Assembly: GCA_951813565.1 (NCBI GenBank)
Contig: OX638351.1
Span: 4,416,001 to 4,480,000, forward strand
DNA from: an uncultured Poribacteria bacterium
GTDB lineage: Bacteria > Poribacteria > WGA-4E > WGA-3G
DNA length: 64,000 bases
Direction of reading: 5' to 3'
Shown: piece after piece, positions 5,845-59,905 of the stretch
How positions within the stretch are numbered: position 1 is the first letter of the stretch
Layout of the letters: every line of letters starts with the position of its first letter
Notes under the pieces: model-generated
Database searches by the model: none
Told to the model about the DNA's origin: nothing
The model's input: only the letters and a program-made list of their open reading frames with translations
Translations under genes and position numbers: made by a program

Positions 5845-6148
5845 ATAATTTCCGTTAACTCATACCAGATTAACTTGATTCCAATCTATCGGTGCGGTGA
5901 ATCAACGCCAAATAAGCGTTTGGCGGGAACGACATAGCACTATACACATTTCGCCCCGCTGGGGCTCAAAAAAGCTTCTTAACCGTTTTCTATACACATT
6001 TCGCCCCGCTGGGGCTCAACACAACTACAAGCGCGGACTCATTTCCTTAAATTGACTTCTATGGTGTGGTGAATCAACGCCAAATAAGTGTTTGGTATTT
6101 GTTGGGAAACCGCACCTACCACCCGAAAAATAAGATAATTTCCGTTAA
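5845..6148. repeat. Nested repeat element flanked by a 14-bp direct repeat ATAATTTCCGTTAA
   Basis: Direct repeat at 5845-5858 and 6135-6148; interior has two copies of TATACACATTTCGCCCCGCTGGGGCTCAA and two GAATCAACGCCAAATAAG units. Confidence 0.7.
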
Positions 6149-11298: not shown

Positions 11299-11997
11299 GG
11301 GTGTGTAAAGTTTTTGTAGAAATCCGCACAACTCCTATTGTAGGGGCGAGTCTCCGGGGAATGCCAAAAGGCATTCGGACCCGGTGAATGACTAAAGACG
11401 AATGCGCCAAATCAACGGTATGAATGCCTGCTGGCATTCCCCGTATGGCATTCGCCATGGTTCATACCGTTGATTTCTTGATTTGGTGCCTGCCCGTTGC
11501 ATGGCACGTCCTGCGCAGTGGCGGGGCACCAAATCAACGGCATGAATGCCTTATGGCATTCCCCGGGACCCCGCCCATAGGCGTCAATTTAAGAACACAA
11601 TTACCAGATTGCCTCTTGTGGGAGGGCTTTATAAGCCCGATTTATATGTATTTATCGGGGTTGAAAACCCGCCAAATGCCAAAAAGCGCATTTGGCGTTG
11701 ATTTGGCAGCATGCCACACGCGCATGCTGCGTTGATTTGGACAAATGCCAAAAGCAGAATCAACGCCGAGCGCGCGTATGGCACTCGTCGCATTTGGCGT
11801 TGATTTGGCAGCATGCCGGACGCGCATGCTGCGTTGATTCGCTCCCACAAGAGGGTATATCCTTAAATTGACGGCTATGGGGCACCAAATCAACGGTATG
11901 AATGCCTTATGGCATTCCCCGGGACCCCGCTCTACAGTGGAAAACGCCGCGTAATCATTGCAAATTGAACCTATGTAACCCAAATATTTACACACGG
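11299..11997. mobile_element. GGGTGTGTAAA-ended MITE, large nested copy (about 699 bp)
   Basis: Inverted homologue of 59241-59905 and 39610-39858; right end degenerate (TTTACACACGG); no target duplication seen. Confidence 0.85.
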
Positions 11998-28578: not shown

Positions 28579-29496
28579 ATGAAGATAGATAAATTCACGA
28601 ATCAACGTCAAATGTGCATACGGCATTTGTCGGATTTTAACCTGAAATATACCTTAGAATCTGGACAGTCGTTCCGATGGAACCGGGTGGACGATTCGTA
28701 TTATGGTGTCGTTGAGGGACGGATACTCAAAATCCTGCAAAGGGGCAATACCTTAATTATAGATAGTTCGCAATACGAAGACGAGGCAATTTTCACATCG
28801 CACTTGTCTCATTATCTTGACTTACACCGGGAGTTGGCATCAATATTAGCAGTTGTGAACGTTGATGCTTACATTGATCGTGCAATTAATCAGTTCTGGG
28901 GCATGCGTATTCTAAATCAGGAATTATGGGAAACCATAGCATCGTTTATCTTATCACAAAACAACAACATGGGGCGAATCCGCAGCATTATCCGATCACT
29001 ATCAGAACGTTTCGGCCAGAGGTTGGAGTTTGAGGGGTACGTGGATTACACTTTTCCATTGCCGCAAACACTTGCGGATGTTGGTGTTGATGAAATTTTT
29101 GCTTGTGGTACCGGATACCGTGCAAATTACCTCTGGAATGCCGCGAATAACATTGCCAATGGCGAACTTGTACTTGATGCGTTAAAACAGGTGGACTACC
29201 CTGACGCAAAACACGAATTGATGAAATTGGAAGGTATTGGCGAAAAGGTCGCTGATTGTATCTGCCTTTTTTCTCTTGGTCACCTTGCAGCATTGCCTGT
29301 TGATGTTTGGATAAAGCGGATTTTTGAGACAATATATCTTCGCAGGCGCGCGACACTACGCGAAATTCAAGAATTTGCCAAAAGCTATTTTGGGGAATTC
29401 GTAGGATATGCCCAACAGTATTTATTTCACTACGCGCAAAACCATCCAAAGTGGGCGGATGCTGAACATCTGGCATTGCGCGACAAGAAAAAGTAA
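28579..29496 (+). CDS. 8-oxoguanine DNA glycosylase (Ogg1-like, HhH-GPD)
   Basis: TLESGQSFRW, ILSQNNN, GIGEKVADC, PVDVWI, GYAQQYLF; start position uncertain. Confidence 0.9.
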   Translation: MKIDKFTNQRQMCIRHLSDFNLKYTLESGQSFRWNRVDDSYYGVVEGRILKILQRGNTLIIDSSQYEDEAIFTSHLSHYLDLHRELASILAVVNVDAYIDRAINQFWGMRILNQELWETIASFILSQNNNMGRIRSIIRSLSERFGQRLEFEGYVDYTFPLPQTLADVGVDEIFACGTGYRANYLWNAANNIANGELVLDALKQVDYPDAKHELMKLEGIGEKVADCICLFSLGHLAALPVDVWIKRIFETIYLRRRATLREIQEFAKSYFGEFVGYAQQYLFHYAQNHPKWADAEHLALRDKKK

Positions 29497-31332: not shown

Positions 31333-31380
31333 ATTTAAGAATTGCCTGAACACTTTACACCAGCGAGGTTAGGAAACCTC

Positions 31381-31416
31381 CAAATCAACGGTATGAATGC
31401 CATTTAGGCATTCCCC
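31381..31416 (+). mobile_element. 36-bp AATCAAC-hairpin mini-insert inside a REP-like hairpin
   Basis: CAAATCAACGGTATGAATGCCATTTAGGCATTCCCC interrupts CAGCGAGGTTAGGAAACCTC|GCCTACC; the uninterrupted form is present (reverse strand) at 56909-56935. Confidence 0.8.
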
Positions 31417-31562
31417 GCCTACCGGTGAATGTCCGAGGCGCGATGAATTGCGCGACTACAAACGCTGTAAACCCAGATGGCGGATGTGTAAAGTATGGCA
31501 CTATCTATGATGTCATACAAAATAATTATTAACCACATCAGATAATTACCTGCGGAGGAAAA

Positions 31563-40893: not shown

Positions 40894-41076
40894 TATCTCA
40901 TAAATCAGATTTTGTTAGGTTCGCTATGTTTTATCTAACGCTTCCTCATATTGTAGGGGCGGGTCCCTGTGCCCGCCCATTGTTCCATCTTCAAGACATG
41001 GCGAGGCACCAAATCAACGGTCCGAATGCCTGATGGCATTCCCCGGGACCTCGCCCTACAAATGATTTATGAGATA
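40894..41076. mobile_element. TATCTCATAAATC-ended element with GTAG REP doublet and a 35-bp mini-insert (41010-41044)
   Basis: Inverted TATCTCATAAATC / GATTTATGAGATA; GTAGGGGCGGGTCCC and GGGACCTCGCCCTAC REPs. Confidence 0.6.
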
Positions 41077-45285: not shown

Positions 45286-45870
45286 GTAGGTTTGGTTTCT
45301 AATCACACCATAGATGTCATTTAGTGTAATATCTCTCTTGTGGGAGGGTTTTGTCCGCCCGATTTTGTGAGACTCAAACTGTAAAATCCAAATCAACGCT
45401 GAATACGCCAAATCAAGAAATCAACGGTATGAATCATGGCGAATGCCATGCGCGCATTCGTCTTTAGTCATTCACCGGGTATGAATGCCTATTGGCATTC
45501 CCCGTATGGTATTCATCCAAATCAACGCAGCATGCGCCAAATCAACGGTATGAATGCCATTTGGCATTCCCCGTATGGCATGCTGCGAGGTTGAAAACCC
45601 GACAAATGCCAAAAAGCGCATTTGGCGTTGATTCACTCCCACAAGAAGGTGTATCCTAAAGTTTACACCTATGGGTAGAGCGAAGCGAAACCCAACAATT
45701 CAACCGTCTTGAGAGTCCTAAAGAGTTGGGTTTCACTTATTTTTTCGGAAATATCGACCTAAAATAGGTCAACAACTTCTCTTTAGGGCCTGTTTTTATT
45801 GTCCATTTCCGTTCTACCCCACCGAATGCCATAGGCGCATTCGGTGTTGATTCCCTACGGGATTTATCAA
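45286..45870. repeat. Intergenic nested palindrome mosaic with many AATCAAC-hairpin units
   Basis: AATCAAC/GTTGATT units near 45390, 45419, 45519, 45538, 45627 and 45846; CATAG...CTATG frame at about 45309-45673. Confidence 0.8.
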
Positions 45871-47100: not shown

Positions 47101-47850
47101 TTATTGCGGCTTTTCTCTGTGGGCATCAAGAAATGGAAATACCTTTTGAATACGTTGAAGCTGCTTGTGAATAGCTGCTGCCCGTTCAAATTGAAGCATC
47201 GCAGATGCACTATTCCGCTTTGCTACGAGATTTGCTTGTACTTTTTCATATTCCCCGTCAAGCAAATTAACGATATTCATTATCATTTCTCTATAGAGTT
47301 CACGCGTAATGAGTGCAGCACAAGGCGCATAACAACGTTTCATGTCGTATTGTAGGCAAGCACGGTAACCGACAAGGGGTGTAATAATTTCTTGGCAAGT
47401 GCGAACCATAAAAATTCGCTGTAAAACATCAATCGCCTCATCGGTCCATCTACGACTTGATAAAGGACCGAAATATCTCGCGTTATCTGCTTGAGGTTCT
47501 GGAACTCTTTCAAGTCGTGGAAAATCTTCATCTACATTGATACGAATATACCATGTTTGAGTGCCATATTTCAGGGCAGAATTATAGGACGGCTGATGTT
47601 GTTTGATTAAACGTGATTCCAAGAAGAGTGCTTCTTGTTCAGATTGGCAAATATGATATCGAACAGAAGTTGTCCATCTAATAAGACGTTTGATTTTAGA
47701 ACGGCGATTTTTAACCTTATGAATGTATGAACGTACACGCTTGCGCAAACATTTCGCCTTACCGATGTACAAGATTTTACCAGAGGCACCGTGAAAAAAG
47801 TAGACACCCGGTTCTGACGGAACGTTTTCTACCATTTCTTTCGTTAACAT
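47101..47850 (-). CDS. GIY-YIG nuclease, UvrC N-terminal-like (Cho-like) with UVR domain
   Basis: PGVYFF, LYIGKAKCLRKRVRSY, QPSYN, CLQYDMKRCYAPC, LQFERAA. Confidence 0.88.
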   Translation of the reverse strand: MLTKEMVENVPSEPGVYFFHGASGKILYIGKAKCLRKRVRSYIHKVKNRRSKIKRLIRWTTSVRYHICQSEQEALFLESRLIKQHQPSYNSALKYGTQTWYIRINVDEDFPRLERVPEPQADNARYFGPLSSRRWTDEAIDVLQRIFMVRTCQEIITPLVGYRACLQYDMKRCYAPCAALITRELYREMIMNIVNLLDGEYEKVQANLVAKRNSASAMLQFERAAAIHKQLQRIQKVFPFLDAHREKPQ

Positions 47851-51432: not shown

Positions 51433-51820
51433 ATGTTCTGATATAAAAGTACAATCTACCTTTGATTTATATTCTGCACAGGAAACTTGTACAAATTCTG
51501 TTAGTCCCGATTCCAGTTTTTGGCGACGCGGATGGACATAAACTGAAAATAAACAGTATTTACGGGCGATTCGGTGCGGTTAGGAAACCGCACCAAGGGT
51601 ACTTAGTGGTAACGACTTTTCATTTATAACCTAAGTTGCTACGGACAAGATTTCAAGCTTGTAGACATTGCTTTTTACTGAAAAACAAGGATTTCCAGCT
51701 AATTCTTATGCTTTCTTTTTTAAATCGGGGTTAGAAACCCCTCCTACAAGAGCATTCGCGATATAGGTAGCAACTTGGGTATTTATAGTAAAATCTAAAA
51801 ACACCTTTACATTTTCTTAA

Positions 51821-56787: not shown

Positions 56788-57019
56788 TTTTATATCACGG
56801 CATATTTCATTAATCAGTACAGAAACCGACAATGCCGTTCCTTTCTAATTGTAAAGTCTTCAGTATTTATAGTGAATTATGAAAAATCAATAGACATTTT
56901 CTCTTTCTGGTAGGCGAGGTTTCCTAACCTCGCTGATTGACAGTGCCAAGTAATTCAAAGTCTACCATAAAACTGGGCAATCAGTATTGTCAAATAAAAA
57001 AATGAAGACTATGAAAAAC

Positions 57020-57500: not shown

Positions 57501-57735
57501 CATAGGCGTCAATTTAAGGATAGATTTTCTTGTAGGAGTGAATCAACGCAGCATGCGCGTGTGGCATGCTGCGGGTTTGTAACCCCGATTTAATTAGTTT
57601 AGGTTCACAAAATCGGGGTTACAAACCCGACAAATCATGTAGAATGCCATGCGCGCATTCTACCAAGCGTATTTGGCGTTGATTCACTCCCACAAGAGAC
57701 AATCTGGTAATTATGTGCTTAAATTGACGCCTATG
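57501..57735. mobile_element. CATAGGCGTCAATTTAAG-ended MITE with a 19-bp duplicated target hairpin
   Basis: Perfect terminal IR; GGTAGAACG(C/T)AGTCAAACC at 57482-57500 and 57736-57754. Confidence 0.85.
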
Positions 57736-59240: not shown

Positions 59241-59905
59241 GGGTGTGTAAATATTTGGTTACATAGGTTCAATTTGCAATGATTACGCGGCGTTTTCCAC
59301 TGTAGAGCGGGGTCCCGGGGAATGCCATAAGGCATTCATACCGTTGATTTGGTGCCCCATAGCCGTCAATTTAAGGATATACCCTCTTGTGGGAGTGAAT
59401 CAACGCAGCATGCGCCAAATCAACGGTATGAATGCCTGTTGGCATTCCCCGTATGGCATGCTGCCAAATCAACGCCAAATGCGCTTTTTGGCATTTGTCC
59501 AAATCAACGCAGCATGCGCGTTTGGCATGCTGCGGGTTTTCAACCCCGATAAATACATATAAATCGGGCTTATAAAGCCCTCCCACAAGAGGCAATCTGG
59601 TAATTGTGTGCTTAAATTGATGCCTATGGGCGGGGTCCCGGGGAATGCCATAAGGCATTCATACCGTTGATTTGGTGCCCCGCCACTGCGCAGGACGTGC
59701 CATGCAACGGGCAGGCACCAAATCAAGAAATCAACGGTATGAACCATGGCGAATGCCATACGGGGAATGCCAACAGGCATTCATACCGTTGATTTGGCGC
59801 ATTCGTCTTTAGTCATTCACCGGGTCCGAATGCCTTTTGGCATTCCCCGGAGACCCGCCCCTACAACAGGAGTTGTGCGGATTTCTACAAAAACTTTACA
59901 CACCC
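59241..59905. mobile_element. GGGTGTGTAAA-ended MITE, nested copy (665 bp) with 9-bp TSD
   Basis: TSD TGTATCTGG at 59232-59240 and 59906-59914; contains a CATAG-MITE (59358-59628) and several mini-inserts. Confidence 0.92.

Follow-up and report, generated by a model that had tools for sequence, protein, structure and literature searches.

A 34-36-nt tagged hairpin is a recently mobile element of sponge-symbiont Poribacteria and may be moved in trans by an HUH-type enzyme

Very short, lineage-restricted repeats that insert precisely are known from the Nostocaceae as small dispersed repeats (SDR1-8), and by description these appear to be the closest kind to the unit reported here. In 2008, Elhai et al. 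reportedly characterized SDRs as 21-27-nt sequences with covarying stems that nest into themselves and other repeats and whose mover was unknown, and a route through RNA is said to have once been proposed for those of Nostoc. SDR5 inserts precisely between bases 3 and 4 of HIP1, according to the accessible text of PMC4390886. For REPs, the available portion of PMC8266576 calls the mechanism of dissemination unresolved and describes group-3 RAYT enzymes as picking dinucleotide cuts by pairing with a tetranucleotide 5' of the stem, such that an altered tetranucleotide moves the cut; a GTAG guide yields C|T and C|A junctions and altered guides retarget. Single REPs are treated as dead remnants in the accessible part of PMC3116915. 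The spread of REP-sized repeats is still an open question, and the lone hairpin described here has clean empty sites.

The unit comprises two variable 5' bases, an invariant AATCAAC tag and one hairpin, 34-36 nt in all, and the last C of the tag is the first C of the hairpin and able to pair with the terminal G. Type I units possess a near-perfect stem of 9-10 bp, while type II units possess two or three outer pairs, a short bulge and a 7-bp stem with a 3-nt spacer ahead of it, resembling a group-3 REP, in which a short perfect stem is set off from the tetranucleotide (accessible part of PMC8266576). We call the window the whole stretch of DNA analyzed (64,000 nt), which belongs to a source genome of 5.43 Mb in one contig (G000). 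Its features, with strand in parentheses, are:

31381..31416 (+): type II unit, a 36-nt net insert of two variable bases, AATCAAC and hairpin, from the excision comparison
31381..31382 (+): variable 5' bases of this unit (CA), whose identity tracks the upstream host base
31383..31389 (+): invariant AATCAAC tag, ending in the C that can pair with the terminal G
31388..31391 (+): ACGG, candidate guide tetranucleotide, proposed from the association test and the rule in the accessible part of PMC8266576
31395..31413 (+): inner 7-bp stem (31395-31401 with 31407-31413) and 5-nt loop, from stem covariation across subfamilies
31417..31417 (+): terminal G at the right junction, the same as the host base at this site
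31361..31380 (+): REP-like host hairpin, left part, from the excision comparison
31417..31423 (+): REP-like host hairpin, right part, from the excision comparison
56909..56935 (-): empty paralog of the 31361-31423 host, exact match
11408..11442 (+): unit within the loop of another unit-family hairpin, with the empty pair on the next line
45438..45470 (-): paralogous copy of the 11408 host without a unit, one mismatch
57539..57572 (+): type I unit with 5' bases TG in a GTAG-type REP, G|G junction
51722..51750 (-): paralogous copy of the 57539 host without a unit, one mismatch
41010..41044 (+): unit of the GGTCC variant expanded in the source genome, in a REP loop
45389..45635 (no strand assigned): nested/tandem cluster of five units, by subfamily pattern
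59315..59796 (no strand assigned): nested/tandem cluster of eight units, by subfamily pattern
11408..11925 (no strand assigned): eight or nine units, nested, nearly the same mosaic as 59315-59796 in inverted orientation

Excising 31381-31416 from 31361-31423 leaves the exact reverse complement of 56909-56935. The initial annotation, made from the letters of the window, had counted about 30 tag-hairpin units by eye, always in intergenic palindromes and inserting into each other, and had named the four filled sites above. Its count held up (35 units by subfamily pattern), as did the nesting, since units are seen inserted into the loop, foot and leader of other units, giving tandem arrays and runs of leader fragments. 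The filled and empty pairs stood for 31381 (exact) and for 11408 and 57539 (one mismatch each), while for 41010-41044 we found no empty copy of the host within 2 mismatches in the window, and its commonest genome-wide empty form is different at the junction. Intergenic placement proved the strong rule and not a universal one: 2.2% of 947 units in the source genome fall within ORFs, though ORFs make up 81% of it, and coding DNA also contains units. The host repeat of 31361-31423 additionally flanks a RAYT-like gene at G000:5070893; no empty orthologous host of this site was found in the six closest relatives with both genes adjacent, which lack the entire REP cluster.

Genome-wide counts extend this picture. 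AATCAACG occurs 1270 times, a four- to eightfold excess over the 153-296 occurrences of each of five one-mismatch controls. A stem of at least 6 bp follows AATCAAC at 633 of 2358 genome sites (2-5% for five control 7-mers), and an empty paralog that matches exactly over 11+11 nt exists for 352 of the 2358 sites, where inserts are most often 34-35 nt long. By subfamily pattern, the source genome holds its 947 units in 546 clusters, 328 of them singlets. Repeated DNA makes up 84% of the units' right flanks and 76% of their left flanks (22% of the non-coding background), and 30 site classes contain two or more unit subfamilies; the proposal of a parasite of REP-like DNA survives in the sense that units lie mostly in repeats, and fails in that they are not confined to REP-like DNA.

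Clusters also carry structures of their own. Runs of leader fragments with 8-nt and 6-nt periods lie upstream of units at five loci (L113, L117, L125, L143 and L155) and are the footprint of repeated leader self-insertion. Palindromic derivatives with a tag at each end (AATCAAC...GTTGATT) occur in G023 (L257, L399-L418), at L204:2202-2240 and in G000 near 1460150, and look like a 39-nt element with terminal inverted repeats. In G023 (C1, 2.0-2.4 Mb), about six identical type II units stand head-to-tail within a REP, which suggests slippage or rolling amplification.

Evidence of mobility comes from genes. Homologous empty sites in three genes, encoding a lipoate-ligase-like protein and the transposases of IS982 and ISAs1, reveal clean inserts without target duplication. 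In one relative (G056), the IS982 transposase gene is present in three identical filled copies and one empty copy that is identical across the aligned stretch; the 34-nt insert lies at T|G, lacks a target duplication and frameshifts the gene, and its CA follows T such that no base is shared. The lipoate-ligase-like gene (G000:4511528-4512346) holds a 36-nt unit at 4511663, in frame and equal to 12 codons, and its 24 orthologous loci comprise 2 filled, 21 empty and 1 unalignable. For the ISAs1 transposase, the source genome has three filled copies, and of the 19 loci in relatives, 15 are empty, 3 carry units of differing variants and one could not be aligned. In a tree built from 180 flank columns and 20 rows (6 filled, 14 empty; the G052 row is missing and G014 is a long branch), the filled state requires four changes and a single filled clade is rejected (p-AU 0.0007); the filled copy of G048 differs from the empty copy of G012 at 1 of 180 bases. 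One ISAs1 base was hit by independent insertions several separate times, about four in all, and a single old insertion with multiple later exact losses plus conversion could also account for this, though less simply. A flank BLAST of 721 units against retrieved DNA returned 99 orthologous pairs, with IS982 as the single two-flank empty site, and an empty copy of the L163 site was absent from the 5 genomes searched. The unit is mobile, and its insertion recent and recurrent; the initial annotation's minimal one-hairpin mobile unit, inserting without target duplication, is upheld by clean empty sites in all three genes, and the result it named as contrary, a lack of related empty sites with precise junctions, did not materialize. 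As a separate observation, the 12-codon in-frame unit of the lipoate-ligase-like gene is kept in three species (orthologs L312 and L313).

These coding sites also bear on whether the unit is an assembly artefact, or a passive sequence borne only by larger repeats, a reading we regard as scarcely credible. The predominance of repeated DNA in both flanks means that many copies did spread with their hosts, and short-read contigs (4 of the 8 runs containing the window; 20 kb with eight clusters) break at repeats and gave no filled or empty call within the species. Against this stand the recovery of the unit from all 24 independent assemblies, single genes that hold a clean insert and have empty orthologs, and filled and empty IS982 copies that are identical within one genome, such that the IS982, lipoate-ligase-like and ISAs1 evidence has already refuted this reading as a full account.

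Distribution among genomes is narrow. All 24 same-genus genomes searched have the type II pattern, and none of 16 genomes drawn from three further families of the order does. Scanning 185,579 species genomes gave at least 116 matching stretches, and among the 80 matches listed all are Ca. Poribacteria. A viral collection yielded 0 full-pattern matches and 8 half-pattern matches, none with a hairpin, and two of the sequencing runs containing the window are labelled sponge metagenome. The unit is a real, recently mobile element of a sponge-symbiont bacterium. Copies of the type II unit number 105 in G023 and 105 in the source genome, and reading 600 kb of G023 and 400 kb of G001 found units mostly in a few repeat hosts. 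The GGTCC variant has 55 copies in the source genome and at most 2 in 4 of 39 relatives, and being nearly private to that genome has therefore spread recently. A literature search, with most subscription journals outside it and sequence not searchable, found no description of this Poribacteria unit family.

Junctions distinguish the two ends of the unit. The right end is fixed, with G in 603 of 618 intact non-tandem units, and in tandem units the next unit takes the place of the terminal G (C in 125 of 127). The main class has C-G-G or C-G-C as its empty site and a clean insert, with G after the CG in 30 of 36 families against a mixed background. The terminal G is present even in hosts whose empty site offers none. 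In a table covering 149 of the 418 contexts with an empty form, read for rows with two or more empties, at least eight of the repeat hosts have it in place of an A, C or T of the empty host and lack 0-5 host bases; in one such host the empty copies have A in 47 of 48 and never G. Either the unit brings its own G, which usually takes the place of a target base, or short tails shared between repeats allowed later conversion to produce these cases; in all three coding targets the closest empty relatives have G at the site, which suits both readings. The variable 5' bases, by comparison, track the upstream host base (CA after C in 35 of 43 and TG after G in 13 of 16 non-self families; 0 of 5000 permutations as extreme), with the match limited to one base and the left-side bias to the last host base. 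Observed junctions include C|C, C|G, G|T and G|G among others, so that the initial annotation's precise insertion, usually at C|G, describes the main class, while a minority of repeat hosts lose bases and other junctions exist. Target sites fold at -7.2 kcal/mol (36 sites) as compared with -5.0 kcal/mol for background (300 sites). The unit prefers C-G-G targets in folded DNA, its right end fixed and its left end variable. Two further ideas about target choice were dropped: the insertion site may be loop, stem or foot, which leaves no fixed structural position, and pairing of the unit's 3' arm with the target shows the opposite trend (12 of 43 type II cases are followed by CC, as compared with 3 of 53 for type I).

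Such junctions could arise if host replication or repair copied the unit through template switching or gene conversion, using 1-3 shared bases per end and no dedicated transposase. The tracking of the upstream base fits this, as do short target deletions, which often start with a base shared with the unit, the site classes with two or more subfamilies, and the unit-rich genomes G023 and G001, which are without Y1 or RT; it also accounts for the imprecise junctions of repeat hosts. We nevertheless consider host copying unlikely, because shared sequence on the left ends after one base and the IS982 insertion (CA after T) shares none, and because ends fixed within two bases over hundreds of sites, like four insertions at one ISAs1 base, are hard to obtain without an enzyme that reads the unit.

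One exact end, one variable end and short deletions would also result if the unit were a small RNA whose reverse transcript enters the DNA at a nick. Fixed and variable ends with small target loss resemble target-primed reverse transcription, repeat hosts show this combination (1-5 nt of target lost), and the source genome encodes two RTs. Stem composition points elsewhere: unit subfamilies are distinguished by compensatory changes in outer and inner pairs alike, and of 676 shared stem variants (pairs seen at least twice) 660 are Watson-Crick, 10 C.T and 3 G.T on the tag strand, a covariation almost without G.T that is more like DNA than RNA pairing. The window DNA has no Rfam match, and unit sense in co-directional gaps shows no clear bias (127 sense, 158 antisense). 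As for the enzyme, RT has no match in 22 of 40 genus genomes, including the closed unit-bearing G017, G023, G005 and G021 as well as G048, which has a recent insertion, and the two RTs of the source genome are a Drt4 and a CRISPR-linked RT. An RNA route thus looks quite improbable. The absence of RT where insertion is recent (G048), together with the DNA-like stems, is why we put an HUH-type single-strand reading first. The two RT loci deserve description in themselves: the Drt4 antiviral reverse transcriptase lies at G000:811749-813284 (L233:1066-2601; NF041749 above cut-off), and at G000:3989000-3994500 (L232, L234) a CRISPR array precedes a stand-alone RT and a cas1-like gene, and a unit has inserted in the gap between these two. 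CRISPR spacers are similar in length to the unit; spacer acquisition was rejected as a source, as inserts show no repeat duplication.

Our preferred reading, to which we assign a probability of roughly 45%, is that the unit is non-autonomous and moved as single-stranded DNA in trans by an HUH enzyme of RAYT/IS200 type encoded elsewhere. Such an enzyme would bind the tag and stem; the four bases after AATCA (ACGG or ACGC) would act as the guide, choosing cuts by base pairing, and strand transfer would join unit to target. Most repeat-borne copies may later have spread along with their host REP or IS, and imprecise junctions could come from relaxed cutting or later conversion between repeats. 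Applied to the unit, the rule in the accessible part of PMC8266576 predicts C|C and C|G for ACGG, which are the main-class left and right junctions, and G|C and G|G for ACGC. Across the 176 non-self families of left hosts, guide-G units follow C in 37 and G in 9, while guide-C units follow C in 40 and G in 47, which associates guide and host bases as complements (odds ratio 4.8, p 0.0002), a post hoc result drawn from host families that are not independent. Contrary to the rule are the GCAGC subfamily (C 8, G 1) and about half of type I families, which still follow C. We take the guide covariation as a lead, not proof.

Also in favor of an HUH enzyme are the tagged-REP architecture, the lack of duplication in three coding targets, and the three RAYT-like genes of the source genome alongside its expanded, nearly private variant. 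Weighing against it, copy number does not follow RAYT (median 51 units in genomes with RAYT and 61 in those without, by hand count), and plain strand transfer loses no target bases, whereas the repeat hosts with a non-host G have lost up to 5. The argument in the accessible text of PMC3116915 that single REPs are immobile likewise counts against movement of a lone hairpin. Enzymatic clean insertion, followed by REP- or IS-borne spread and inter-repeat conversion, would let these readings coexist.

The search for a mover covered several enzyme families. The source genome has 10 Y1 (PF01797) matches, being five IS605 TnpA, three RAYT-like and two IS200-like (one at G000:3097971-3098468), in addition to one IscB and 51 TnpB-domain matches. 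None of the Y1, IscB or RT matches lies inside the window, in keeping with the initial annotation's idea of an enzyme encoded outside it. A Y1/RAYT gene flanked by the same AATCAAC hairpin, which that annotation suggested looking for, was not found: the unit is the own flanking repeat of none of the 58 Y1 loci read from relatives and none of the 10 of the source genome (part of the genus's Y1 loci). A loose unit match lies near 6 of the 58, nested in other REPs, palindromic or degenerate, and RAYT and IS200-like genes of the genus are flanked by ordinary REP families, which are hosts of the unit. Across 40 genus genomes, queries matched RAYT in 31, IS200-like in 22 and RT in 18; PF01797 found nothing in G023 (unit-rich), G001 and G010, three of five unit-bearing genomes tested with positive controls, which also tells against an HUH mover, and G048 retains RAYT remains. 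A home-made Y1 profile run over all six frames of the source genome recovered known loci only, IS110 (PF02371) was absent from it with the control positive, and an IS91 search of it was blank with the control equally silent. No enzyme family tested occurs wherever the unit does; past activity and then loss of the mover gene would fit the unit-rich genomes. IS605 TnpA of the source genome was rejected as mover, as neither end geometry nor guide rule fits. The IS605 TnpA-TnpB copies of that genome (G000:228440, 2158799, 3745735 and 4320373; L001-L004) have ends that obey the IS608 guide rule (AAAC to a TTAG target, CAAG to a TGAC end). Replichore placement of the unit clusters shows no bias (242 of 465) of the lagging-strand-template kind expected of IS200/IS605 elements, a weak test in that the tnpB control was likewise not significant (31 of 51; GC skew weak). 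Separately, a GIY-YIG domain protein at 47101-47850 (-) is the sole nuclease among the 12 of 74 window ORFs that were Pfam-scanned.

A mover from another enzyme family, specific to the genus or its mobile elements, might instead recognize tag plus hairpin and insert the unit. The unit is in every same-genus genome searched and in no other family searched, neither Y1 clades nor RT are universal, and recurrent use of one ISAs1 base points to strong site choice. With no candidate found, and with only known loci returned by the Y1 profile and IS110 absent in the source genome, we judge this rather unlikely.

Comparison with described systems returns us to the SDRs. Like them, the unit is very short and restricted to a narrow lineage and inserts precisely, and it has the further traits of SDRs, namely a length of less than 50 nt, a hairpin with a covarying stem, and nesting; it differs in phylum, in its greater length and fixed 7-nt tag outside the stem, in two variable bases linked to the site, and in a terminal G that is present whether or not the host supplies it. 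With REP/REPIN-RAYT systems it shares a tag 5' of the hairpin, strand specificity, extragenic location, hundreds of copies and no target duplication. The tag, however, is AATCAAC and not GTAG (or GGAG), junctions are C|C, C|G or variable and not C|T, no adjacent cognate RAYT was found, the unit inserts into REPs and into itself, and it moves as a single hairpin whereas a REPIN is an inverted REP doublet. IS200/IS605 elements offer a similar HUH logic, with a guide beside a hairpin and no duplication, but possess separate left and right end hairpins where the unit has one, a right junction about 10 nt from the hairpin where the unit's is at the hairpin foot, and a fixed 4-5 nt target 5' of the left end that the unit lacks; their tetranucleotide rule does not predict the unit's junctions. 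PATEs are non-autonomous IS200/IS605 derivatives. REP-targeting IS110/IS1111 elements have core bases at both junctions while the unit's two junctions differ, MITEs have terminal inverted repeats and target duplication that the unit does not (a few fully palindromic derivatives exist), and a target-primed RT retroelement needs RT at a recent insertion, where G048 has no RT match. The unit works like a lone-moving tagged REP, yet fails membership in REP-RAYT, REPIN, IS200/IS605 derivatives, MITEs and IS110. A TGTCA-tagged REP class was set aside as a comparison, the term being absent from the accessible text of PMC6006769.

The broadest version of our reading, that a lone 34-36-nt hairpin is a complete, recently active transposable unit whose own four bases guide its ends and target, differently in two subfamilies, with a borrowed HUH or host enzyme, is one we hold as doubtful. 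If true, no earlier SDR-sized element would have had an enzymatic logic that can be read, and the unit would be a case of a lone REP-like hairpin that moves unaided. With its recurrent target (about four hits) and the different cuts predicted for its two subfamilies, the unit offers short oligonucleotide substrates and a yes/no in vitro prediction. The unit also shapes symbiont genes, having added 12 codons to a housekeeping-type gene in three species and frameshifted an IS982 transposase.

Several minor observations concern the window. Its largest two mosaics, 11408-11925 and 59315-59796, hold different nested units, and it seems that a composite of about 500 bp was duplicated whole, with units then gained or lost. 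A decayed old unit at 28598-28635 keeps its orthologous position in five relatives (L069, L072, L076, L081 and L085) at about 85% identity; most copies are not kept that way. A second short repeat with a GTCAAY-TTAA core often adjoins REPs and units in the window (e.g., 6050-6070, 11865-11885 and 59355-59375).
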